Shown here piece after piece: positions 777 through 55,696 of a DNA stretch of 64,000 nucleotides. This DNA is from Alphaproteobacteria bacterium (GTDB lineage Bacteria > Pseudomonadota > Alphaproteobacteria > UBA6615): positions 3,924 to 67,923 of the forward strand of contig JAJFIX010000017.1 in assembly GCA_021774575.1 (NCBI GenBank), given 5' to 3'. Position 1 is the first letter of the stretch; each line of letters begins with the position of its first letter. Under the pieces are notes generated by a model. It saw nothing but the letters and a program-made list of their open reading frames with translations, had not been told where the DNA came from and did no database searches. The position numbers were made by a program, and so were the translations under genes.

Positions 777-3119
777 CTATAGCACTGGGCGCGGACTCGT
801 TTCATCTTCATTTACCGAAAACGCCTCAGGTGCATTTCCGTCAGCCCAATGCTGTCGCATCTTAACATAAGCCGTTTCCAGGTTGCGGGTGAAACGCCGG
901 CTGTCGAATAGTGGTGCCGTTGGGATGTTTTCGGCCAATCGGGCTCGTAATCCGGTCAATAATTCGGTGTCGCGCGTCAATTTAAACGCCATCGCCTCAT
1001 AGTCGGCCAGCGATCCGACCACGAGTTCAGGTAGTCCGACGGCATGCAATAAACTGCCCGCCACCCGTGAGGCAAAACTGGCGCCGCTATAGGTCAATAC
1101 CGGCAAGCCGGACCATAGGGCGTCACTTGCGGTCGTGTGGGCGTTAAAGGGGGCGGTATCGAGAAAAAGATCGGCCAGGCGGTGACGGGCCAAATGGTCA
1201 GGCATTTCGGCGCGCGGCGCAAAGACTAGGCGGTCCGGGTTTACCCCGCGCTGCTTGGCCTCGCGCCGTAGGTTCTCCCGGGAGCCCTCGTTACCTGCCG
1301 AAAGCCAGAGCACACCGTCGGGGGTTTCGACCAGCAGCCGCATCCAAATATCAAAAATCTCCGGCGTGAGTTTGTATGCATTGTTGAAGGCGCAGTAGAC
1401 AAAGCCCGTCTCCGGCAGGCCGCAATCGGCTCGTTTCGGTGTTTCCTCCGCGATCAATCGTTTGCGGTCGTTAACCATATAGCTATTGGGCAGGTATACG
1501 AGTTTTTCTGTGTAAAATGCATTCTGGTCGGGCGGAACAATGTGAGTGTCGACCAAAATATAGTCAATGAAGTCGGCCCCGATTGTTCCTGGGTATCCAA
1601 GATAGGATATTTGGACAGGCGCCGGCCGGTGGGCAAATATTGCCGGTCGGGAATCAGTGGTATGCCCCATCAGATCAACCGCGATATCAATCCCAAGCTT
1701 ACGGATAAGCAGGGCAGCATCGGCGTCGCTCAGCTCATGAATGTCATGCCAGTGGTCAAAGGCCGCCTTAACACGCGCGCGAGCGGGAAAATCCCAGTCC
1801 GGCCCGATGCTAATTCCGTGTAACTCGAACCTCGCCTTGTCATGAAGTTCAAAAAGTTCAGGGATCAGCGAGGTTATCGGGTGCTCGCGAAAATCTGCCG
1901 AGATATAGGCGATGCGGATAGGTCCATCAGGATCGGCGGGGAAGTCATCGGGCGTGATCGTAGATAATGGCGTGACTGCATTGACGTTATGGGCGCAGTA
2001 ATTTTGCGCACATTTTAAGGCTTCAGCGGGGTCGTCTGAGAAAGCCAAAAACCCGAAAGGGTGGAGGGGGGTGGTTGATGATTCCAACTTGTCTCGGAGG
2101 CCAATGCCGTATTTCGTATAATCATGCCAATCGCATAATTTTCTGCTGGCTGTCGCGCATGCCAATAGAAAAATGCCGTCATCGGGTTCGATAGCGAGTG
2201 CCCGTCCATAGCTTGCAAACGCATTCTTGTGATCTCCAATAATATCTAAAGCGTTGCCAAGATTATTGTGGGCGTCAGCAAAGTGGGCATCAAATTCTAT
2301 CGCCTGCCGGTAACTGGCAACGGCCTCCTTATACAGGCTGAGATTGCTTAGCGCATTTCCCAGGCCGGCATGGGCATCGGCATAGTTGGGTTTTAGGTGC
2401 AATGCCCGCTTGTAGTTGAAAATCGCTGCTTGATACTGCCTCAGTGAGCATAATGTATTGCCTAAATTATTGTGTGCGGACGCATATTCTGGGTCTAGCG
2501 AAAGGGCGCGCTGGTAGCTGGCGACCGCTGTCTCGTATTGCCTGACATCGGCCAACACGTTCCCCAGATTGGCATGGGCTCGCGCGTAGTCCGGCTTATG
2601 TTCGGTCGCGCGCCGGTAGGAACCGATCGCTTCGTCGTATTGCTTTGTGCCTCTCAATGCATTGCCGAGATTGTTGTGCGCCACTGCATGACCCGGAAGG
2701 GCCCGCAAAACAATTTTGTAGCTTGCGATAGCGGCATCATATTGTTCGAGGTCGAATTGCGCATTGCCGATATTGTTATGGATCTCGACGTCGCCGGGTC
2801 GAAGTTTTAAAGTTTGGCGGTAGTTGGCGATGGCTTCTTCCGGGCGGTTGAGCTCTTTTAAAGCGTCTCCCAAATTGAAATAAACATCGGGGTAATCGGC
2901 CTTCACGCGTATGGCCGCTTTGTAGTGCTTGACTGCGGTTTCTAACTGCCCGAGCTGCGTGGCCGCAATTGCACCGAGCTGCAGAGCATCAAAATTTCGC
3001 GGCGCGGCTTTGAGAATTGCCCTGCAGGCCTTGAGGGCTTTTTCAGGATTGCCCGACTGGATGTTTGTGACGATTTGTTGGATTTCCAGCCCAGGGTTCC
3101 GAACTCTATTTTTGCCCAT
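777..3119 (-). CDS. TPR-repeat protein with C-terminal GT41 (O-GlcNAc transferase / SPINDLY-like) glycosyltransferase domain
   Basis: 780 aa. About nine tandem 34-aa TPR units (recurrent AHxNLGNxL...YxxAIxxYxxAL pattern, residues ~30-340). The C-terminal half carries GT41-type blocks CAFNNAYKLTPEIFDIWMRLL and FLDTAPFNAHTTASDALWSGLPVLT. Confidence 0.8.
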   Translation of the reverse strand: MGKNRVRNPGLEIQQIVTNIQSGNPEKALKACRAILKAAPRNFDALQLGAIAATQLGQLETAVKHYKAAIRVKADYPDVYFNLGDALKELNRPEEAIANYRQTLKLRPGDVEIHNNIGNAQFDLEQYDAAIASYKIVLRALPGHAVAHNNLGNALRGTKQYDEAIGSYRRATEHKPDYARAHANLGNVLADVRQYETAVASYQRALSLDPEYASAHNNLGNTLCSLRQYQAAIFNYKRALHLKPNYADAHAGLGNALSNLSLYKEAVASYRQAIEFDAHFADAHNNLGNALDIIGDHKNAFASYGRALAIEPDDGIFLLACATASRKLCDWHDYTKYGIGLRDKLESSTTPLHPFGFLAFSDDPAEALKCAQNYCAHNVNAVTPLSTITPDDFPADPDGPIRIAYISADFREHPITSLIPELFELHDKARFELHGISIGPDWDFPARARVKAAFDHWHDIHELSDADAALLIRKLGIDIAVDLMGHTTDSRPAIFAHRPAPVQISYLGYPGTIGADFIDYILVDTHIVPPDQNAFYTEKLVYLPNSYMVNDRKRLIAEETPKRADCGLPETGFVYCAFNNAYKLTPEIFDIWMRLLVETPDGVLWLSAGNEGSRENLRREAKQRGVNPDRLVFAPRAEMPDHLARHRLADLFLDTAPFNAHTTASDALWSGLPVLTYSGASFASRVAGSLLHAVGLPELVVGSLADYEAMAFKLTRDTELLTGLRARLAENIPTAPLFDSRRFTRNLETAYVKMRQHWADGNAPEAFSVNEDETSPRPVL

Positions 3120-21835: not shown

Positions 21836-24234
21836 GCGGGCGGGGCCTCGGTCTGGCGGCGATTGACCGGAAAATGCTGCGCGATTTATGGCGTATGCGT
21901 GGTCAGGCCGTCGCGATTGCGCTGGTCGCTGCGGCCGGTGTGGCGATGTATGTGATGGCGGCGGGAACTTTTGCGTCTTTGTCGGCGACGCGAGACGCCT
22001 ATTATGACCGCTATCGGATGCCCGATATTTTTGCCGGCGCTGTGCGGGCGCCGGAGAGCGCGGCCCGCGAGATCGCACTGCTGTCGGGTGTGTTACGCGC
22101 CGACAGCAGGATCGTCGGGCAGGCAACCCTCGATATGGTAGGTGTCGACGAGCCGGTATTGGCGCGACTGGTCTCATGGGATCCGAGCAAACCGGAAAAC
22201 CTCGGCAGGCCGTATCTGCGGGCCGGACGGCTGATCGCCCCCGGACGCCCGGACGAAGGGATGGTCAGCGAGAATTTTGCCACAGCCCATGGGCTGGCCC
22301 CTGGCGACAAGCTGGTGGCGACGATCAATGGCCAGCGTCGCACCATCGATATTGTCGGCATTGTCTTGTCGCCTGAATTTGTCTACGCCATCGCGCCCGG
22401 CGCCATCATGCCGGATAATCGCCTTTACGGAATTATCTGGCTGGCGCGGCTGTCGTTGGCGGCGACTTATGATCTTCAGGGGGCCTTCAACGAACTCGCC
22501 GTTAGCGTCATCCCGGATGCTGATCAGAGAGAAATCTTTGCCGGCGTCGATCGGATTCTTGCTCCTTTTGGAGGGGTGAGCGCCTATGGCCGGACCGACC
22601 ATATGTCCGACGCATTTTTAGCTGCGGAAATTGACGGGCTGGAAGCGATGGGAAAAGTCGTGCCGCCGATCTTTCTCGCCGTTGCCGCGTTTTTGGTTAA
22701 TATCGTCATGAGCCGCCTCATCCAGACCGAGCGCGAGCGTATTGGGCTCTTCAAGGCTTTCGGCTATACCAATCGTGCCATTGGTTTTCATTATCTAAAA
22801 TTGGTGTCGGTGATAACGGCTGCCGGTGCGTTGCTCGGGATGGCGGGCGGCAGTTGGCTGGGCCGGGCGGTAACCGAAATTTATGGTGAATTTTTCAGTT
22901 TCCCATTTTTGCTGTTTCGGCCCAATTTATCGACTATGATCATTGCTGCCGGTGTGACCCTTGCCGCAGGCTGCCTCGGCACAGTTTCGGCGATCCGCCG
23001 GGCGGTGCTGTTGCCACCGGCGGAGGCGATGATCCCGCCAACTCCACCGCGCTATCGCCAGATTTCCCTGCCCGGTGCCATTGGCCGGATGGCAGGTTTT
23101 CTAAGTAATAAACTTTCTCAGCCAACACGGATGATCGGCCGCCAGCTCCTTCGTGCTTGGGGACGGGGGGCGGCAACATGCGTCGGTATTTCCCTCTCGG
23201 TCGCAATGCTGGTATCGACGATGTTTTTTTTCGATGCAATCGAGGTTCTTATCGACACCCAATTTCAGGTCGGCCAACGCCAAGATGTGAGCGTGACCTT
23301 TGTCGAAGCCACGCGGCCCGATGCACTTTGGTCCTTGGAGCGTTTGCCCGGCGTCATGAAGGCTGAGGGATTTCGCGCCGTTCCCGCATCTGTTTCGGCC
23401 GGCCGGTTCAGCCGTAACGTTTCGATCATCGGACTTCCCGCCCAATCCCAATTACAACGTCCGCTGGACCGTCGACTAATGCCGATTGCAATTCCCGAGC
23501 GAGGTATATTGCTCTCGGCCAAACTTGGTGAGTTGCTCGGTGTGGGGGTCGGCGACACAATATCGGTCGAGGTTAAATTGGGCGCGCGCCCTCAGATGGA
23601 GCTTCGCGTGACGGCTCTGGCCGACGATTATATCGGTACCTCGGCCTATATGGATATCGCCTCGCTCAATCGAGCGATGGGGCACGTCACATTGATCAGC
23701 GGCGCCAATATTCTTTTGGACCCAGTCGACGAACCGATGTTTTTCCAGACCGTCCGCGACATGCCGTTTATTGCCGGGGTCCAATCCAACAGTGTGGCGC
23801 TGGCGATGTTTCGCGCGACCATGGCCGAGAACCTGTTTATCACGATATTTTTCTACATTGCCTTTGCCGCGATCATTGCCGTTGGCATCGTCTATAACGC
23901 CGCCCGCATTTCACTGTCGGAGCGGGCGCGGGAACTGGCCACGCTGAGGGTTCTGGGCTTTTCACGGGGCGAGGTTTCATACATTCTGCTAGGCGAGCTA
24001 GCAGTGCTGACGGTGATCGCCATGCCTCTTGGCTGTGGCCTGGGTTATTTATTTGCGACGGGAATAATCGAACTCTATCGCACGGATCTGATGCGGATAC
24101 CGCTAATCGTGAATGAATCGACCTATGCGGTGTCGATGTTGATCGTCTTAATCGTCACTGCATTGTCGGGATTGCTTGTGCGTCGTCAAATCGACCAACT
24201 GGATTTGGTCGCGGTCTTGAAAACGAGGGAGTGA
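21832..24234 (+). CDS. ABC transporter permease with duplicated FtsX-like domains
   Basis: 800 aa. Two FtsX-type 4-TM modules, with ER.REIG..KA.G-like blocks [12 protein letters not shown] and [14 protein letters not shown], are separated by large extracytoplasmic regions. The GTG start overlaps the upstream stop (GTGA). Confidence 0.8.
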
Positions 24235-47111: not shown

Positions 47112-49244
47112 CTACCGCGAGGTGATTTGCTGCGCTGCCGGTTGAAAAATGAGGCCTTCCAGTGAAATCGTGGCGCCTTCCATTTCGGGACGCTGACGTA
47201 CACAATAGGCGGTCGGGTAGAGCCCAGCCTTGGCAAATGACGCGGGTTGACTGATCGGGAAGCAAGCATTAGCCGTCGTGGTCAAGGCTGCAAGAGTTAC
47301 CTTGGGCTCGAAGAAAGTAAGGGCACCGTCGTAACTGCCGAAAGTGAATCCATTGGCGAAATTGGCCGGGTTAGTTGCGGCAAATTCTGGCGCATGAGAA
47401 TCGAGTAAATGGTTCCCCATATAGCTGATCGCGCCGCCGACATTTACGTAGCCGGCGGGTATGAACTGTGCGGGCACCGGCATTGTCGCCCGGGCCAGAA
47501 GAGTGCAGTCGATCATGTCGCCGCAGGGCCCATGGGCAATCGCCTGCACTGCCTCGAAATCCTGCAAGAAAAAATGGACGCTGAGATGCGGTTGCGCAAG
47601 AGCGGCCGGCCAATTGGCCGTTGCCGTCGGCGTAATGCGTCTGTGACCCTGGGGTAACCAATTCAGACTCACCCAAGATATCGGCGTTGCCGCACTTTGA
47701 TTTGAGCCAGCGTTTGCCGGTGTGGGCATGCGCAGAAAATGCTCCGTCACGGTCATGCATTCGGCGTTTCGGTCGGGGTAGCCGTTGCCGTTGAGATCGA
47801 TGCAGCGGCGTTGGTCGCTTGTTTGCTGAGTGAGCGCGGTAAGAGCTTCGGTTTCGATGAGAATACCGACCGAAACCGGTATGCCATCAGCTCTCATTTC
47901 AACATATGTAGAGACTTGGCCGGTTCCGATAGTCTTCAGCGGTCCCGTCCGTTTTAGTGCATTTGGTGCCGCGTCGGCGCGCAAATGGGCCAATAACGGA
48001 CCCGAAATGCCACCATCAGCCGCAAGTCCGCGGCGCCCTTGATATTCGCTAATCGCCCTGGCCGTGCCCGCATTCATGATGCCGTCAACGGGGCCGGCGT
48101 TAAATCCCAGCGTTGCCAGTGCCTGCTGTATCTCGCCGACAACAGCGGGGCTTGTCAGCCGAGACACGTTGCCCGGACCTGTGTTGACTTGGCTGCGCGG
48201 CGGCGCAGCAAATGTCGGCTGCAACAGATTTGTTTGGGGGTCGGTCTGGTATGAAATCGGCTGTGCCCCGATCGGCTGAGCCGGAACTGGGTTATAGAGC
48301 GCTGGACCTGAGCCTCGGGTTGGGGCGACGGATCCGCCGCCGCCATACTGGCCGGCATCTTGGCGCAATCGGTTCAGCAGACTAGGTGTGATAGTGCCGT
48401 CCGATTGCAGCCCGATAATAGAAGCATAGGTGCGGACGGCTTGAGCCGTCTCAGGCTTCATGATGCCGTCAACCGGACCTGGTTGCATTCCCAAACGAAC
48501 GAGCATCTCCTGCGCCTCGGCGATTTCGCGACTAGGGCCGGGGACATTTCCTGGCAGCAATTGGGTTGGCATTTGCGGCTGCTGTTGCTGAAATTGCGGC
48601 ACGATCGCCGCCTGCCTGCGGGGCTGGGCGGGTTGTATTTGCCCTTGCGCGCGCTGTTGTGCACCCTGCTGCGCGGCCGCATATCCATTTTGTGCGCGAT
48701 ACCTGACTCGCGGACGGGGGTCGTAGCCCGGATCGGTATTTGCCGGATAGGATGTTGCCCCTAATCTGCCAGCTTGCGGGTTGTAAAGATCGTTTGATCC
48801 CAATTGACCCGCTGCATTTGCCGGCAGCATGCCTGTATTCAGGCCGGGGGCAGGGATGTTTGTTCCGGCAAAAGCCGTTGGGGGCTGTGGAAACGCCGAG
48901 GGGATCGCGCTCAATTGTGGACTAACGGCCTGACGGGGGTCCTGATTGGCGGTCTGGCCGGTGATCGGCTGTTGGAGTGCCTGCTGCTGACCAAACGCCG
49001 ACAATGCCGATGGAGGCTGTGGGAAGGCCGACGGGTTTGCGCTTATTTGTGGGTTAAAGGTCTGGCGATTGATCGGCTGCTGAAAAACCTGCTGTTGCTG
49101 GCCGATTGTAGCCGGTGTAATCAATCGTTGACTGCCTCGCGGCAGAAAATCCATTACCCCCGCCCCACTACTACAGGCCGTCAAAGTAGCCGTTAGTGCC
49201 GCTGTCACGGCCAATGTCGAGAATGCAGAATAATTTGTGCGCAC
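47112..49244 (-). CDS. lipoprotein with Q/P-rich disordered region, two PG_binding_1-like domains and a C-terminal Cys-containing domain of unknown function
   Basis: GTG start. Lipobox LTAC. About 250 residues rich in Q/P/A with repeated SAxPSAFPQPP units. Two peptidoglycan-binding repeats (AQEMLVRLGMQPGPVDGIM...; IQQALATLGFNAGPVDGIM...). A ~270-aa C-terminal globular part follows. Confidence 0.6.
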   Translation of the reverse strand: MRTNYSAFSTLAVTAALTATLTACSSGAGVMDFLPRGSQRLITPATIGQQQQVFQQPINRQTFNPQISANPSAFPQPPSALSAFGQQQALQQPITGQTANQDPRQAVSPQLSAIPSAFPQPPTAFAGTNIPAPGLNTGMLPANAAGQLGSNDLYNPQAGRLGATSYPANTDPGYDPRPRVRYRAQNGYAAAQQGAQQRAQGQIQPAQPRRQAAIVPQFQQQQPQMPTQLLPGNVPGPSREIAEAQEMLVRLGMQPGPVDGIMKPETAQAVRTYASIIGLQSDGTITPSLLNRLRQDAGQYGGGGSVAPTRGSGPALYNPVPAQPIGAQPISYQTDPQTNLLQPTFAAPPRSQVNTGPGNVSRLTSPAVVGEIQQALATLGFNAGPVDGIMNAGTARAISEYQGRRGLAADGGISGPLLAHLRADAAPNALKRTGPLKTIGTGQVSTYVEMRADGIPVSVGILIETEALTALTQQTSDQRRCIDLNGNGYPDRNAECMTVTEHFLRMPTPANAGSNQSAATPISWVSLNWLPQGHRRITPTATANWPAALAQPHLSVHFFLQDFEAVQAIAHGPCGDMIDCTLLARATMPVPAQFIPAGYVNVGGAISYMGNHLLDSHAPEFAATNPANFANGFTFGSYDGALTFFEPKVTLAALTTTANACFPISQPASFAKAGLYPTAYCVRQRPEMEGATISLEGLIFQPAAQQITSR

Positions 49245-49564: not shown

Positions 49565-52303
49565 CTAGAGCCTGTTGAGGTGCCCTCTGTTCGTAACTTG
49601 GAGGTCGTCGCGCATACTGGTCAACAAAGAACGGGTCAGGCGACCGTCGGGATAGAGGCCTTTATGACGCTGATAATCGGCGATAGCACTTATCGTTGCC
49701 GGTCCGGCGATACCGTCATTTGCGCCGGGGTGGAGCCCTAGCTGCGCCAGCATGTTTTGCGCGTCGGCGACGCTGCTCGACTGGCGTGAACTTCCAGATT
49801 GCAGGCTAAGGCGATCAAACCGGGTTGAAGGCCGGGTTGACGGCCGGAACGAGGACCTACCGAATATGTCGATATCGTCGCTGAAATTATCGCCGAAACC
49901 GCTATCGTAAAATGGATCGAATGAGCTGTTGTTGCGACCGATGTCAAGTTGCCCAAATCCACCGAGGCCGCGCGATGTCAGACCGGTCTGAAGAAAAGTC
50001 GGCCCGCCGTGGTCAGACATGCCCCCAAATACCCGATGGCGAACAAAGTTTCCGGTCAATGGCCCGTTCAACGCGACCGGCGTGAAGTCAACGGAAGGAG
50101 ATAGGTGGCGCTGGACGTCTCGGCGCAACGTTTGAATCAAGCGGTTGGTCAATCTGCCGTCGACACGCAATCCTCTGGCATCTTGATAATTCATTATGCC
50201 GTCACGGGTGTACATACCAAATCTGCCATCAATCGGGCCCGGGTCAAAACCGAGAGAGGCCAAACTCTGCTGCACTTCGGCGACAAGGCTCGGTGTCGAA
50301 TTGGTAATACCGGTTCTGATTGACGGACCGCTTAGCAGGCCGCCTCCGATACCATCAAATCTACTGCCAAACCTACTGCCAAACCTGCTGCCAAAGCCGA
50401 GCCCGTTGTCTCGCAGGCTGACATTAAACACACTGTTGCGGGCGTCGACTAATACAGGGCCCGAACCCCTGCTCGACAAACCTCTATTCGAGATGTTTAA
50501 GCCGCGTGTTCCGCCGAAGTCGTGTCGAGAACTGTTGCCAAAAGAGCTTGTGTGAGGCCGCTGAAACACTGGCCTCTGGCGGAAATTTTGCCGAGTAAAC
50601 GGAGCCTGATTGCCAAACCTGCTGCCAGACCCGTCGTCAAAAAATGACCTGGGCTGGGGTTGGTGTTGGCTTTGTCGGCCATAGGGCTGCATTCCGTAGC
50701 CAGAGGAGCGGCTAAAATATCCCGATTCCATCTGGCGGCCACCTTGGCGTTGGTACGGGGTGGTGAAGTTACTGCTGTTGCCGAAACTCTGCCGCAGCGG
50801 ATAGCTGTTTTGCTGACCATGGTTTGGCATGTTGCCGAAGGAACTATTGCCGTAGCTGGGCCGAGACATGTGACTGCCTTGCTGGCTATATGGCGCACTA
50901 TTATGGCCAAGATTGCTGCCAAAGCTAGGCTGCGACAGGTGACTATTTTGCTGGTTGTGGGGCGCGCTGTTTTGGCCAAAATTGTTGCCGAAGCTAGGCT
51001 GCGACAGGTGACCGCTTGGCCGGTTGTAGGGCGCGTTGTTTTGGCTAAAATTGTTGCCGAAGCTGGGCTGCGACAGGTGACCGCCTTGCTGGTTATAAGG
51101 CGCGTTATTGTGGCCAAAATTGCTACCGAAGCTAGGCTGAGTCAGGTGATTGCCTTGTTGATTATAGGGCGCATTGTGGCCAGAATTACTGGGGTAATTC
51201 GGTTGTGTTCGGTGCGAATGCCGCCCATCCAAGGGAGAGTTTCCGTACCGCACATTTGTGCCGAACTGAGAGTTAGTGGACGGCGCTCCATTGAAACCAG
51301 CCGTATTGGCATAAACAGTCTGGGGCTGGTGAAAGTTTTGCTGCCCAAAGGGTGAACCGCCAAAACTCGAATTATTGTTGAAACCTGACTGAGAAAAGGG
51401 CGCGCTGCCAAAATTGGCATTGCCGTTAAATCCGCTATAGGCCCCGTTGGCACCCAGAAGACCAGTGTTTGAATTGTTATGGCCGAACGACTGATTGCCG
51501 AAGTTATTGTGTCCATTGGGGTCAAAATTATTGAACCCGGGCTGCCCAAATTGAGAAATTCCGCCACTTAACCCATTGCTGGTAAAACCGGAATTGTTAT
51601 TAAATCCAGTGTTTTGATTAAAGTTAGCGGTATTGCCGAAACCGGGGTTAGAAAATCCGGTAGAACTTCCAAATCCATTGTTGTTGAAGCCGGCATTGTT
51701 GTTGAAGCCGGCATTGTTTAGCCCGGTGTTACCGAAGCCAGTGTTGTTGAATCCGGTATTATTATTAAAGCCTGCCGTATTGTTGAAACCACCGTTGTTG
51801 AAACCGGAATTACTATTGTTGAGCCCGGTATTGCCATTAAAGCCGGCAGTATTGTTGAAGCCACCGTTGTTGAACCCGGAATTACCAAAACCAGTATTGT
51901 TATTAAATCCCGCAGTATTGCCGAAGCCACCGTTGTTAAATCCGGGGGTTCCGAAGGTATTTTGTTGAGGGAACTGGTTCGAACTAAATTGATTGTTCCG
52001 AATGGTCTGCGACCCGACGGCAGTGACGATACAATTCGGAGGTCCAAAATTATTTGTCTGACTGTTGCGTGCCTGCGCGGCAGTACAGAAGGTCTGCGAT
52101 TGCTCACCGCTGTTAAAATTGTTGAACGCGTTGGGATTGCCGGTTGCCCCAAATAAGTTCGAAATATCGTTACTTGGAGCTGAAAATTGGGCCAATGCCG
52201 ACGCAGACATCCCTAGCATAAAAGTTAGAGAAATCCCGACCGCAAGAATGCCAGTTTGGCCAGTTGTTTTCGAGAACCCGTCCGTATTTGGTAACAAAGT
52301 CAT
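49565..52303 (-). CDS. secreted N/G/F/S/Q-rich low-complexity protein (GFNN/FG repeats, 23-aa QPSFG repeats) with two peptidoglycan-binding domains
   Basis: Start placed at Met14 of the ORF-track product (ATG at 52303, behind gggggagggg). Signal peptide ...MSASALA-QF. See findings for composition. PG_binding_1-like segments VQQSLASLGFDPGPIDGRFG... and AQNMLAQLGLHPGANDGIAG... Confidence 0.7.
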   Translation of the reverse strand: MTLLPNTDGFSKTTGQTGILAVGISLTFMLGMSASALAQFSAPSNDISNLFGATGNPNAFNNFNSGEQSQTFCTAAQARNSQTNNFGPPNCIVTAVGSQTIRNNQFSSNQFPQQNTFGTPGFNNGGFGNTAGFNNNTGFGNSGFNNGGFNNTAGFNGNTGLNNSNSGFNNGGFNNTAGFNNNTGFNNTGFGNTGLNNAGFNNNAGFNNNGFGSSTGFSNPGFGNTANFNQNTGFNNNSGFTSNGLSGGISQFGQPGFNNFDPNGHNNFGNQSFGHNNSNTGLLGANGAYSGFNGNANFGSAPFSQSGFNNNSSFGGSPFGQQNFHQPQTVYANTAGFNGAPSTNSQFGTNVRYGNSPLDGRHSHRTQPNYPSNSGHNAPYNQQGNHLTQPSFGSNFGHNNAPYNQQGGHLSQPSFGNNFSQNNAPYNRPSGHLSQPSFGNNFGQNSAPHNQQNSHLSQPSFGSNLGHNSAPYSQQGSHMSRPSYGNSSFGNMPNHGQQNSYPLRQSFGNSSNFTTPYQRQGGRQMESGYFSRSSGYGMQPYGRQSQHQPQPRSFFDDGSGSRFGNQAPFTRQNFRQRPVFQRPHTSSFGNSSRHDFGGTRGLNISNRGLSSRGSGPVLVDARNSVFNVSLRDNGLGFGSRFGSRFGSRFDGIGGGLLSGPSIRTGITNSTPSLVAEVQQSLASLGFDPGPIDGRFGMYTRDGIMNYQDARGLRVDGRLTNRLIQTLRRDVQRHLSPSVDFTPVALNGPLTGNFVRHRVFGGMSDHGGPTFLQTGLTSRGLGGFGQLDIGRNNSSFDPFYDSGFGDNFSDDIDIFGRSSFRPSTRPSTRFDRLSLQSGSSRQSSSVADAQNMLAQLGLHPGANDGIAGPATISAIADYQRHKGLYPDGRLTRSLLTSMRDDLQVTNRGHLNRL
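50780..51195. repeat. six tandem 69-bp coding repeats (23-aa unit ~HLSQPSFGNNFGQNSAPYNQQGG)
   Basis: The core agctaggctgcgacaggtgac recurs with period 69 at 50854, 50923, 50992, 51061 and 51130, with a degenerate copy near 50785. Confidence 0.85.
51335..51958. repeat. degenerate short coding repeats specifying the GFNN/GFGN field
   Basis: Iterated ...aaaccggtattgttgttgaagcc...-type 12-30-bp units. They encode 13 exact GFNN tetrapeptides plus ~10 GFGN/GFNG/GLNN variants (residues ~129-336, ORF-track numbering). Confidence 0.75.
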
Positions 52304-52568
52304 AAGTTGTACCCCTCCCCCTGGGTATTCGAAAAAATCCAAACGCCCGTCGCTCGCCGGTTTTCCTGACTAACAAATGCCCCCGAAATTACTAGCAAAT
52401 GCTTTATCTATAGGCACTTAGTCTCACTTGATGATCAGGTATGCCAAGGTCGTTGAAAAACAAACGGTTTTGGAACGTTGATTCCGTCACACTGTAGTTG
52501 GTTTCCGTAGTCGACCGGATGATAGGGGATCGATGTTATTCACGCATCGCAAAAGCTGCCGGTATATT

Positions 52569-53063: not shown

Positions 53064-53600
53064 CTAAAAACGATTTCCATTCATGACGCGATAGCCGCCT
53101 TGGGTGAAAACGACACCGGGGGTGCCGTATATATTGGCTTGATAGGTTGGGCCTGTCTGAACGAATCTCGGTTGGCCGCACTGCTGGTTGCCGCCAGCAA
53201 AACTGGCGCCGCCGTAACTGTTTTGTTGCCCATGGTTGCCGCCATTCGTCAGGAACTGAGGGCAGCCCTGAGCAAAGGACGACTGGGAGTGTGGGTTTAC
53301 AAATTGTTGCGGTTGATGTTGATTTTGAAGATAGGTTGTCTGCCCTGTGCCTGAACCGTGTCCGGCCATTGATCCGTGACCCGCTGGCGATCCGTGACCC
53401 GCTAGACTTTGATTATGGCTTGTTTGACTTATTTGGCTTGGATGATTGGCAAAAGAGCCGTGTCCCGGTGAGCGACTTGTTTGGACATATTGGGTTCTCG
53501 GGTCCGACTGCTCAAGCGTTCTGTATGAAGGCTGGCATGCCGTCAGGAATACAGACGTACCGAGAAGAGCCAAACCAATCGCAAGGGGGGATTTGCGCAT
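53064..53600 (-). CDS. small lipoprotein, Q/G/H/S-rich low complexity
   Basis: Start placed at Met21 (ATG at 53600, behind aagaggaaaa). Lipobox LTAC. AGHGS x3 and Q/N/G-rich remainder. No recognisable domain. Confidence 0.55.
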   Translation of the reverse strand: MRKSPLAIGLALLGTSVFLTACQPSYRTLEQSDPRTQYVQTSRSPGHGSFANHPSQISQTSHNQSLAGHGSPAGHGSMAGHGSGTGQTTYLQNQHQPQQFVNPHSQSSFAQGCPQFLTNGGNHGQQNSYGGASFAGGNQQCGQPRFVQTGPTYQANIYGTPGVVFTQGGYRVMNGNRF

Positions 53601-53732
53601 GATTTTTCCTCTTAATGTTGGCCGTGGCACGACCAGGCAAGTCACAAACTTACGCACCACTAGCGGATCATTCGTCGATAGGGTTCCCCATCGATTCGTC
53701 TCAAGCTACATTCGATCAAGGTGGGCATTGCT

Positions 53733-53791: not shown

Positions 53792-54256
53792 ATGATGCCG
53801 GAAGCAATTTTTGCCGCAGGATGTTTTTGGGGCGTTGAAGACATGTTTCGCCAACATCCGGGGGTCACAAATGTTGAAGTTGGCTATACCGGCGGGTCGG
53901 GTGAAAACCCTACCTATGAAGAAGTGTGTGGCGGCACCACCGGCCATGCCGAGGCCGTTCGAATTGAGTTCGATGAAACTCGGACGACCTATTCCGCCCT
54001 GTTGGAGACTTTTTTTCGCATTCACGACCCGCGTCAGGTTAATCGCCAAGGGCCAGATATCGGCACCCAGTATCGTTCGGCGATCTTTACCTGCAGTGAC
54101 GATCAGCGTCAGGCTGCTCATTCGGCGAAAGATGCTGTAAATGAAATGTTGGAGAGCAGCGAAACGGTGGCGACCGAAATCCTACCCGCATCGAGCTTTT
54201 GGCGCGGCGAGGAATATCACCAACAATATTTCGCCAAGCATCGCCGTGGTCATTGA
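53792..54256 (+). CDS. msrA: peptide-methionine (S)-S-oxide reductase
   Basis: 154 aa. Active-site GCFWGVE, then GYTGG..ENPTYEEVC.G.TGHAEAV and DPRQVNRQGPD.G.QYRS blocks. The second ATG (53795) fits the ggag RBS better. Confidence 0.9.
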   Translation: MMPEAIFAAGCFWGVEDMFRQHPGVTNVEVGYTGGSGENPTYEEVCGGTTGHAEAVRIEFDETRTTYSALLETFFRIHDPRQVNRQGPDIGTQYRSAIFTCSDDQRQAAHSAKDAVNEMLESSETVATEILPASSFWRGEEYHQQYFAKHRRGH

Positions 54257-54282
54257 GCGATGGCGTTATGGGAGCCAAGGTA

Positions 54283-54852
54283 TCATGGCACCCAAAATAT
54301 TTGCGCCAGGCTCCATTCGTCTAGGATCGCCCTGGGCGGCACTTCGCTGTCGGGGCCAGACCATTCGCCTTCGAAAACCAGATGAACATGTGTGTAGGGC
54401 GGGGCTGAACATATTGTAAAGGCGCTGAGTTCCTCCAATCCACGATCGCAAATGGGGGGCGTTATGTCCGGCACAATATCGGGGAGCATCAGCGATGAAA
54501 ATTGGTTCCCGATGGCGCCGCCATTGTTGAGTGCAATAAAGGGGCTCAGTATTTCAATGCGCAATATGGTCATGAGCGCGGGGCCAGGAATGATCGTGAA
54601 AAGCTCCTGGTCGCCCTCGATTATCCGAATGACCGGGTAAGGCTCACCTTCCGACATCGACTGACCGGGCTCGACGAGCAAATTGGGAAACAGGTCGGCA
54701 ATCACCGTAATATTGAACGGGGTGTCTTCGTTTACCGGGCCAATGCCCGCATCGCTCAGGGCTAGCGGGTCTTGTGTTGGTGTTGGCGCACAGGCGCCGG
54801 TGAAGACGGGCAAAATCAAAGCGAGGACGGACAATATCAAAAATCTTGGCAT
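54283..54852 (-). CDS. putative lipoprotein, unknown function
   Basis: Start placed at Met30 (MPRFLILSVLALILPVFTGAC, lipobox FTGAC). This removes the overlap with the divergent methyltransferase gene. Confidence 0.5.
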   Translation of the reverse strand: MPRFLILSVLALILPVFTGACAPTPTQDPLALSDAGIGPVNEDTPFNITVIADLFPNLLVEPGQSMSEGEPYPVIRIIEGDQELFTIIPGPALMTILRIEILSPFIALNNGGAIGNQFSSLMLPDIVPDITPPICDRGLEELSAFTICSAPPYTHVHLVFEGEWSGPDSEVPPRAILDEWSLAQIFWVP

Positions 54853-54928
54853 ACCGCAGTTCATACTGCGCATTCTTTCGTGTAGAAGGGCGGCACGCGG
54901 CACCTGAATTCTAACCGACGGAAGTGTG

Positions 54929-55696
54929 ATGGCCAGCAATTGGGAACCCCCCTATACCTTTGAAGAGAAGCTCAAATATGCGCTGATCCCGCCGCGTCTG
55001 TATATCAGGCAATTGGCGGCACGGGCCTGGAAAAAGGGTGAGTTGGAACTCCACCTGCTGCCATTCCTTGCGGCGGCCGACAAAATGGCCGTCGATGTAG
55101 GCGCCAACAAAGGTATTTACACCCATTTTCTGGCTAAGCTTGTAACTCGGGTTGAGGCTTTTGAGCCCAACCCGAAAATTTTTCGCATCCTTAAAAGAGC
55201 ATTGCCGGAAAATGTCACCGCCCATCCGGTTGCCCTTTCCAATACAGCCGGAACTGCCCGGTTGATGGTGCCGAAGCGCAAAGTCGGCTACACCAACCAA
55301 GGCGCGTCATTGAGCGAAACCAAGATCGCTCGGGTTCACCAGGGTGCAGACTACGGTGTCGTCGAAGTTGAGGCGCGCACTATAGATAGCTACGACTTTC
55401 GCGACCTTGGGTTCATTAAGATCGATGTCGAAGGGTTCGAGCGACCGGTACTCGACGGTGCGGCCGAAACAATCGAGCGGGAACGGCCGGTGATGCTGAT
55501 CGAAATTGAAGAGGTTCATACGGGCGAGCCAATTGAAGAGCAGCTTTCTTATGTTGAAAGTCTCGGTTATGACGGGTTTTTTCTGGATGCGGGCCGGCTC
55601 ACGTGTTTGAGCGCTTTCGACCCGGAGCGAAATCACCGGGCTCCGCCGAGTCGACCTAAATACGCTTTTAATTTCATTTTTTTGCCGCGCGGTTAA
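54929..55696 (+). CDS. FkbM-family methyltransferase
   Basis: VDVGANKGIYT SAM-binding block, ...FIKIDVEGFE... and a family-typical length. ATG at 54929; the ORF track uses the GTG at 54926. Confidence 0.7.
   Translation: MASNWEPPYTFEEKLKYALIPPRLYIRQLAARAWKKGELELHLLPFLAAADKMAVDVGANKGIYTHFLAKLVTRVEAFEPNPKIFRILKRALPENVTAHPVALSNTAGTARLMVPKRKVGYTNQGASLSETKIARVHQGADYGVVEVEARTIDSYDFRDLGFIKIDVEGFERPVLDGAAETIERERPVMLIEIEEVHTGEPIEEQLSYVESLGYDGFFLDAGRLTCLSAFDPERNHRAPPSRPKYAFNFIFLPRG

Follow-up and report, generated by a model that had tools for sequence, protein, structure and literature searches.

In a window of 64,000 nucleotides from an Alphaproteobacteria bacterium (GTDB lineage UBA6615; GenBank assembly GCA_021774575.1, contig JAJFIX010000017.1, positions 3,924 to 67,923), the gene at 49565..52303 on the minus strand encodes a protein of 912 residues which carries an export signal, a long and nearly uncharged field rich in Phe and Gly (FG), and two C-terminal peptidoglycan (PG)-binding domains. 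Positional orthologues were found in three other loci, L001 (carrying protein P0005), L083 (P0156) and L002 (P0013); all three are metagenomic. Comparison of the four proteins points to selection on the composition of the field and not on the sequence of its repeats. We tentatively propose that the protein would form a cohesive, gel or elastomer-like layer grafted on the peptidoglycan.

Organization of the FG protein and its gene

The longest open reading frame (ORF) spans 49565..52342 (minus strand), begins with TTG and codes for 925 residues. The ATG at 52303, with a GGAGG 10 nt upstream, yields the 912-residue product and agrees with the coordinates of an initial annotation made by a model from the sequence; the stop codon occupies 49565-49567. 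Residue numbers are those of this product throughout, the ORF-track numbers being higher by 13 (129-336 corresponds to 116-323). Residues 1-38 (52190..52303) have the pattern of a Sec signal peptide, read by eye: a long n-region with only one Lys precedes the hydrophobic core ILAVGISLTFMLGM and an AxA motif (ILAVGISLTFMLGMSASALA|QF), and cleavage is predicted at SASALA|QF, as the initial annotation had proposed. The AxA|Q pattern is kept in all four family members, and we infer that the signal peptide is cleaved and that the protein resides in the periplasm. A lipobox test found no Cys near the cleavage site of the FG protein; both neighboring genes encode lipoboxes (LTAC and FLTAC). The N-terminal head that follows (residues 39-102; 51998..52189) was delimited by alignment of the window, L001 and L083 proteins, which have the motifs NPNAF and SQxFC...T(S/N)NFGPxxC in common. 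Its two Cys could, as the sequence stands, form a disulfide loop. The head had no match in Pfam and is missing from the short L002 member.

The initial annotation had described residues 116-323 as 208 residues with 13 exact GFNN tetrapeptides, about ten variants, a single Asp and no Lys, Arg or Glu. Recounting gave exactly 13 GFNN, with 4 GFGN, 3 GFNG, 2 GLNN and 1 GFSN as variants, one Asp and zero Lys, Arg or Glu (composition N60 G49 F32 S19 T15 A10 Q7 P6 L5 H2 I1 D1 Y1). The uncharged field is larger than this stretch and covers 249 residues (103-351; 51251..51997), Asp261 being its sole charged residue; Tandem Repeats Finder (TRF) detects periods of 72 nt and 18 nt in it. It contains 37 Phe, 27% Asn and 21% Gly, Leu at 5 of the 249 positions, and very few residues of several other kinds (D1 E0 K0 R0, Y2 W0 H3 C0 V2 I1). 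Charged residues amount to 23.7% in the local background, defined by nine confident neighboring genes of the window; against this background the probability of at most one charged residue in 249 is 4e-28, and that of at least 37 Phe is 1e-12. Lys and Glu are nearly absent across the whole FG proteins, folded PG-binding domains included (K 0-3, E 2-3), and Arg (14-53) and Asp (8-32) are used freely in their place. For the window protein, the probability of at most 2 Lys in 912 residues is 2e-13 against the same background.

Downstream of the field, six 23-residue repeats (HLSQPSFGNNFGQNSAPYNQQGG) had been announced; they were found as one degenerate copy (residues 363-385) and five clear copies (386-500), rich in His, Tyr, Gln and Pro (363-500 in all; 50804..51217; TRF period of 69 nt, 4.7 copies, 81% matches). 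They are restricted to the lineage of the window and have no counterpart in the orthologues, L083 carrying HPQGHAAHPGSQ repeats instead. A basic linker rich in Arg, Ser, Phe, Gly and Tyr follows (501-660; 50324..50803; net charge +13), which includes GSRFGSRFGSRF; the R/S/F/G-rich stretch noted earlier lies within it as three GSRF units at residues 638-649 (TRF period 12, 3.3 copies, 50356-50395). The two predicted PG_binding_1 domains were recovered by Pfam as two stretches of PF01471 (95.7 bits against a gathering cutoff of 23, E = 1.8e-27). This family is also matched by the orthologues, and the FG protein is assigned by its sequence to the PG_binding_1 domain class. Domain 1 (about residues 672-726; 50126..50290), the best stretch, lies in a segment (659-757) that is 57% identical to L001, and domain 2 (about residues 845-900; 49604..49771) is 59% identical to L001. 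Between them runs a low-complexity linker rich in Gly, Arg, Asp, Ser and Phe (49772..50125), which opens with the conserved RDVQRHLSPSVDF. Neither Pfam nor NCBIfam detected a catalytic domain of any kind, and about three quarters of the protein is low-complexity sequence outside every model of these two databases.

Even at E <= 10, Pfam returned nothing for the head, the field or the middle of the protein (very weak matches may escape the HMMER filters). NCBIfam gave sub-threshold matches only, through the PG-binding domains, and the PDB sequence search matched these domains only (an L,D-transpeptidase and the lytic transglycosylase SltB3). Literature searches for FG repeats in bacteria, in the periplasm or in wall-anchored proteins yielded nothing relevant, and 'GFNN' led to chemistry acronyms only. 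Furthermore, bacteria and prokaryotes go unmentioned in a review of FG proteins other than nucleoporins, which gives trophinin as its extracellular case (PMC8311347). With the field unmatched in Pfam, NCBIfam and PDB sequences and no description found in the literature, the earlier remark that the protein was not recognized as a described bacterial family is borne out.

The repeat DNA itself argues against an assembly artefact, which had been named as a way in which the annotation could fail. Among the 13 GFNN peptides, 10 different coding 12-mers are used, so that the tetrapeptide is kept at the protein level, and the Asn, Gly and Phe codons of the repeats are near-equal synonymous mixtures. 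Because the DNA repeat copies are only 79-87% alike (TRF), they do not result from a collapsed or duplicated assembly of identical repeats. The same architecture is present in four independent assemblies, and the sequence data establish a genuine, conserved gene. Long ORFs lying over the repeats in another frame or on the opposite strand (50497-51355 and 51633-51968), such as a plus-strand 111-residue 'LLKP' ORF, are shadows of the repeat periodicity and not genes.

We consider it very improbable that the protein has no specific function, as would be the case for a neutral repeat expansion in a dispensable PG-binding protein, an unexpressed ORF or an assembly artefact. Low-complexity repeats expand readily, the family is very rare, and the ORF is mishandled by gene callers (only 190 of 314 codons were annotated by NCBI in L002). 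However, the 2.7-kb ORF is intact through the repeats, synonymous codons have diverged within identical motifs, and four independent fields obey the rule of composition strictly; with housekeeping identity down to 60-77%, architecture and position have persisted, and an upstream element is conserved.

Relatives and the rule of composition

An exhaustive phmmer search of 1.84 billion representatives resulted in 5468 matches, nearly all via the PG-binding domains, and 150 listed matches were screened for FG content. Among these 150, P0005 (524 residues) was the only FG-rich protein. Its signal peptide is accompanied by the N-terminal motifs FGATxNPNAF and SQxFC...NFGPxxC of the window protein. 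It also has an FG field of 160 residues, composed of NQFGQ and GFNSFGTG units with 30 Phe and zero charged residues, and two PG_binding_1 domains 57-59% identical to those of the window protein. The top match, P0002, was discarded as spurious: it is an animal-like protein of 3430 residues with APYG..HTGKP repeats, which matched the 23-residue repeats by chance periodicity.

A profile of the C-terminal half, for which 120 matches were listed and 115 retrieved and screened, added P0013 and P0156. P0156 (428 residues) has both a signal peptide and the two-Cys motif, besides GGFNQ/GGFGQ repeats, repeats rich in His and one PG-binding domain; no other of the 115 retrieved proteins showed an FG field. 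P0013, the sole taxon-labeled relative, bears the label 'MAG: ... [Alphaproteobacteria bacterium]' (MAG, metagenome-assembled genome) and is a truncated gene call. The full ORF of L002 (5126..6070) codes for 314 residues with a signal peptide, about 92 residues of GGFST/GGFNT/TQFGQ repeats and then two PG-binding domains. In the NCBI annotation of L002 (JAPUHW010000289.1), only the last 190 of the 314 codons are retained, and a spurious 95-residue gene is placed on the opposite strand over the FG part. P0278, which comes from a second MAG, is a partial copy whose annotation extends through the FG part. Since gene callers mishandle repeat fields, relatives may be under-represented in protein databases. 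As regards the taxonomy of the window itself, the best PDB sequence matches of its cytochrome b are 1zrt, 2yiu and 2qjk, which are alphaproteobacterial bc1 complexes, in agreement with the label of P0013.

Three further types of search gave no additional member. A metagenome scan with the PG-binding profile kept 80 loci, with no FG field in any ORF; two scans of species-representative genomes, with the FG protein and with the 710-residue product of the neighboring gene as queries, found no relative; and a full-length word-indexed search, the candidates of which were swamped by low-complexity words, gave one irrelevant PG-binding match. As judged from these searches, the family is very rare, with four loci among the matches listed from billions of proteins. 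The search for homologues called for by the initial annotation thus led to three other loci, conserved and syntenic, from metagenomes only and none in a characterized family.

The four fields measure 249 (window), 160 (L001), 180 (L083) and 92 residues (L002). Each is free of Lys, Arg, Glu, Trp and Cys, has at most one Asp and at most two Tyr, contains few aliphatic residues and is 21-38% Gly; the three orthologue fields have zero charged residues. One Phe occurs every 6.7 (window), 5.3 (L001), 6.2 (L083) and 6.1 residues (L002). The repeat units, in contrast, differ from one member to the next: GFNN in the window, NQFGQ in L001, GGFNQ in L083 and GGFST in L002. These sequence comparisons indicate that selection acts on composition and not on the repeat sequence. 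The prion-like, N-rich character which the initial annotation had noted is not a trait of the family, high Asn being peculiar to the window protein: the maximal number of Gln plus Asn per 80 residues is 31 in both the window and L001 but 19 in L083 and 13 in L002, for a threshold of at least 30 in the Michelitsch-Weissman criterion of prion-like sequences.

Variation in length of this kind, threefold between members, is linker-like, and the conserved two-Cys head precedes the field in three of the four proteins. The field could thus be a passive spacer or tether, a flexible and protease-tolerant linker (an entropic spring) that distances the head from the peptidoglycan, for instance to reach the outer membrane or a partner, and that has no self-cohesion. 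Low-complexity linkers beside PG-binding domains are common, the Q/P-rich region of the 710-residue neighbor being one example. However, the shortest member (L002) keeps the field without the head, and a mere linker requires neither 12-15% Phe nor a total ban on charge. Moreover, the linker of the 710-residue neighbor, which is Q/P/A-rich and has Arg, shows what an ordinary linker is in this organism. We regard the spacer as possible but doubtful.

Phe also recurs with a short period. The median Phe-Phe distance is 5-6 residues, the autocorrelation of each of the four fields has its highest or second highest peak at period 5, and L083 presents 11 consecutive 5-residue units in exact register. 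This period speaks for an ordered repeat fold or a functional amyloid, in which the field or the 23-residue repeats adopt a beta-solenoid or a cross-beta fiber and the protein makes a wall fiber or rigid rod instead of a gel. The five or six Q/N/G-rich 23-residue repeats are curli-like in number and length, and N/Q-rich FG segments can form amyloid (PMC9630130). Nevertheless, exact register extends over at most 4 units in the window, where spacings of 5 and 6 are mixed, and at the position two residues ahead of Phe, which would face inward in such a fold, the members do not consistently have a small or hydrophobic residue. The Gly content of the fields is 21-38%, no pentapeptide, curlin or other repeat model of Pfam matched even at E <= 10, the orthologues are devoid of the 23-residue repeats, and the neighbors scanned include no curli- or Fap-type secretion genes. 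AlphaFold2 (AF2) run on the full-length protein as a single sequence gave a mean predicted local distance difference test (pLDDT) score of 31.5, with about 25-30 in the field, and residues 1-660 came out without secondary structure; the absence of strands speaks weakly against order in a single-sequence run. Taken together, an ordered fold appears unlikely.

The conserved gene neighborhood

The shared gene order comprises a small low-complexity lipoprotein, the FG protein and, where the contig permits, a Q/P-rich PG-binding lipoprotein. L001, a 32.6-kb ENA contig, carries successively the DUF1131 gene, msrA, a 238-residue low-complexity PG-binding protein, the FG protein, a 551-residue protein with two PG-binding domains, a Na/Ca exchanger, an SDR, uvrC and, farther away, moeA, in the same order as the window. 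The order in L002 is uvrB, the DUF1131 gene, msrA, a small Y/G/H-rich lipoprotein and the FG protein, and the incomplete gene that precedes the FG gene in L083 again codes for a Y/G/H-rich low-complexity protein. Between the window and L001, identity is 66% for UvrC, 62% for MoeA, 60% for MsrA and 47% for the large neighbor; UvrB of the window and of L002 are 77% identical. Because the order is the same at 60-77% housekeeping identity, the cluster has been kept across substantial divergence.

The gene upstream of the FG gene (53064..53660, minus strand; likely start M21 at 53600) encodes a small lipoprotein rich in His, Gly, Gln and Ser with the lipobox FLTAC. Its homologues, at 1386-2102 in L001, 4103-4672 in L002 and 2-295 in L083, always lie directly upstream of the FG gene. 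These proteins are His/Gly/Gln/Ser/Tyr-rich, with GHGS-type repeats and the conserved motif T(L/I)EQxDPR(S/T)Q(F/Y)(I/V)QTS; the L001 version adds a PG_binding_1 domain and FG-like units (QFGTNQVGFNQFGNG). The downstream gene (47112..49244, minus strand) encodes the 710-residue lipoprotein (lipobox LTAC), which consists of a Q/P-rich region, two PG_binding_1 domains and a C-terminal domain predicted to be beta-rich (AF2 pLDDT 82). Just 11 homologues of this last domain were found, all standalone and nine of them tagged PF18197 (TTHB210-like); it had no sequence match in PDB, and Foldseek against PDB gave nothing below E = 0.098. The low-complexity flavors of the two neighbors are kept between orthologues, Q/P/A-rich in one and H/G/Y/S-rich in the other, and PG-binding domains occur in one flanking lipoprotein in the window and in both in L001.

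A conserved element of 37 nt, CTTTTGC-N21-CCCCTATCAT, is located at 52519..52555 (minus strand), about 215 nt before the ATG of the FG gene. It is shared with L001 (2596-2632) and L002 (4877-4913), and across the three loci it reads CTTTTGC-N21-C(CCC/ACG)TAT(C/G)AT, about 155-250 nt before the FG gene and with identical internal spacing. The pattern was derived from these same three sequences and is a lead rather than a test; judging from its sequence and place, the element may be a promoter or operator. A second match in the window, at 21968-22005 (plus strand), falls inside an FtsX/MacB gene and is probably due to chance. No EcfG, CtrA, sigma-E or RpoH-type pattern was found upstream of the FG gene, scans for consensus promoters and terminators stayed at chance level, Rfam gave no match over the window, and folding of the 5′ untranslated region was not unusual (z = +1.5).

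In the three longer loci the cluster is flanked by msrA and the DUF1131 gene (53792-54939 in the window, 31-1106 in L001, 2041-4006 in L002). DUF1131 is a homologue of YfeY, the 'RpoE-regulated lipoprotein', and the flank may hint at an envelope-stress neighborhood or merely reflect conserved gene order. Eukaryotic FG nucleoporins are O-GlcNAc-modified by GT41 enzymes, and the window contains a gene with TPR and Glyco_transf_41 (OGT-like) domains (777-3119, minus strand). It lies 47 kb off and its product is presumably cytoplasmic; a link to the FG protein was set aside as coincidence.

As a surface adhesin or biofilm matrix component, the FG protein would cross the outer membrane, and its sticky uncharged FG sequence would drive cell-cell or cell-surface adhesion. 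The relatives all come from metagenomes, and homophilic adhesion has been proposed for trophinin, an extracellular FG-repeat protein (PMC8311347). Yet the two PG_binding_1 domains favor retention at the diderm sacculus, Pfam detected no autotransporter, type I or type V secretion or sortase-type signal in the protein, and the flanking genes encode lipoproteins and housekeeping functions. This makes the adhesin quite unlikely.

A possible peptidoglycan-grafted FG layer and its known counterparts

The reading that we tentatively favor, by analogy with characterized FG domains, is a peptidoglycan-grafted, disordered and self-cohesive gel or elastomer-like layer in the periplasm. The presumably Sec-exported protein would bind peptidoglycan non-covalently via its two C-terminal PG_binding_1 domains and project the long, uncharged and presumably disordered field rich in Gly, Phe, Asn and Gln. 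With Phe every 5-7 residues and no solubilizing charge, the field should be poorly solvated by water, and numerous copies fixed to the sacculus would stick together by Phe-Phe and Asn/Gln contacts. In these alphaproteobacteria, the outcome would be a cohesive hydrated mesh, gel or elastomer-like, within the periplasm. The low-complexity lipoproteins encoded on either side probably act along with the FG protein and could tie the layer to a membrane.

We infer disorder and self-cohesion from the rules measured for the FG domains of Nup98. In these domains charge and Tyr, His, Cys, Trp, Val and Ile are extremely depleted, Phe-Gly motifs give cohesion, and each spacer residue removed lowers the saturation concentration 3-5 fold (PMC9918544). 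Since its Phe density is double that of Nup98, cohesion of the bacterial field should be stronger, not weaker. Furthermore, N/Q-rich FG domains have reversible amyloid-like cohesive states (PMC9630130). Because the 5-residue Gly-aromatic period recalls elastomers, we name the predicted state a gel or elastomer-like mesh and not specifically a nuclear-pore-like sieve. A sieve, glue or matrix role had been raised as speculation in the initial annotation. It seems rather unlikely to us that the layer is a periplasmic Phe/Gly hydrogel in the full sense, that is, an independently evolved FG-type phase built with the flanking lipoproteins and acting as a selective sieve or a mechanical cushion. Such a phase might, for example, shut out lytic enzymes or buffer osmotic shock, and would be the physical counterpart, in a prokaryote, of the permeability barrier of nuclear pores.

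Several observations weigh against a disordered periplasmic gel. AF2 modeled even the PG-binding domains poorly, which leaves some room for an ordered fold. The conserved 5-residue period could reflect a regular structure and not a random coil, and it points equally to Gly-rich repeats of the elastomer type. The periplasm was preferred to the surface on two grounds: the protein has PG-binding domains, and the genes scanned include no obvious partner for export across the outer membrane. Finally, the family is tiny (four loci), so that any role is lineage-specific.

If the field is cohesive, the protein would represent a natural protein gel grafted on peptidoglycan and would be relevant to the long-standing notion that the periplasm is a gel. 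It would also offer a minimal natural model for the physics of FG phases with very short spacers, and a case in which sticker-and-spacer materials evolved convergently. Should the field be a spacer only, the locus still defines a new three-gene envelope module and shows that such genes are truncated by gene callers.

Among known systems, wall proteins with PG_binding_1 domains (PG hydrolases, L,D-transpeptidases, SleB) resemble the FG protein by its two PF01471 domains, whereas the FG protein has no catalytic domain. Curli CsgA and Fap proteins are secreted, as the FG protein is predicted to be, and likewise Q/N/G/S-rich, with five or six imperfect repeats of about 22-23 residues in the middle region; unlike them, the FG protein matches no Curlin or Fap model, has no secretion or nucleator genes among the neighbors scanned, is PG-anchored, and its 23-residue repeats are not conserved in orthologues. 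The PPE-MPTR proteins with Pentapeptide_2 (XNXGX, PF01469) and the PF00805 repeats recall the GFGNTG and NxGFxN strings of the window protein, in which Asn and Gly recur at fixed positions, as well as its period of 5 and its predicted nature as an exported envelope protein. However, PF01469, PF00805 and PF13599 gave no match at E <= 10, 6-residue units break the register, the NQFGQ and GGFNQ units of the orthologues do not fit XNXGX, and PPE-MPTR proteins belong to another export route and phylum.

Elastomeric Gly-rich repeats, such as those of abductin (FGGMGGGNAG), flagelliform silk (GPGGX), elastin-like proteins (VPGVG), squid beak (GHGxY) and plant glycine-rich cell-wall proteins, form hydrated networks or coacervates in extracellular load-bearing materials. 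The apparent likeness lies in secreted repeats (a secretion predicted for the FG protein) of about five residues that combine Gly with an aromatic or hydrophobic residue and carry few charges; in addition, the upstream small lipoprotein has GHGS-type repeats. These elastomers are eukaryotic and without sequence relationship to the FG protein, none is known to be tethered by a PG-binding domain, and the FG protein, in which Lys is nearly absent, has no evident Tyr, Lys or metal cross-linking chemistry. Mammalian trophinin has an FG-rich disordered domain outside the cytoplasm with proposed homotypic FG-FG contacts (PMC8311347), as we predict for the FG protein, but it is a eukaryotic integral membrane protein without homology or wall anchor.

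The comparison with FG nucleoporins made by the initial annotation holds in part. Like the FG domains of the Nup98 type, the bacterial fields are of low complexity and exclude charge and Tyr, His, Cys, Trp, Val and Ile almost totally; Phe is the sole abundant hydrophobic residue, beside Gly, the spacers are rich in Asn, Gln, Ser, Thr and Gly, a globular anchor sits at one end, and composition is conserved while sequence drifts. The likeness fails in density, length and GLFG motifs: the bacterial fields have 92-249 residues versus 500-700 in Nup98, Phe occurs every 5.3-6.7 residues versus about 12, GLFG is absent with Leu nearly so, and a 5-residue period is present. The bacterial protein also has no detectable homology to Nup98, is predicted to be exported and not cytoplasmic, and would be anchored by PG_binding_1 domains and not by a pore scaffold. 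By sequence it thus stands outside the nucleoporin FG family; by analogy, it may work like a nucleoporin FG domain nevertheless. Cohesive FG domains are regarded as a eukaryotic invention, and our literature search found no bacterial exported example. Here, similar compositional rules appear in a putatively exported and wall-tied bacterial protein and are maintained by selection across deeply diverged genomes while the repeats turn over.

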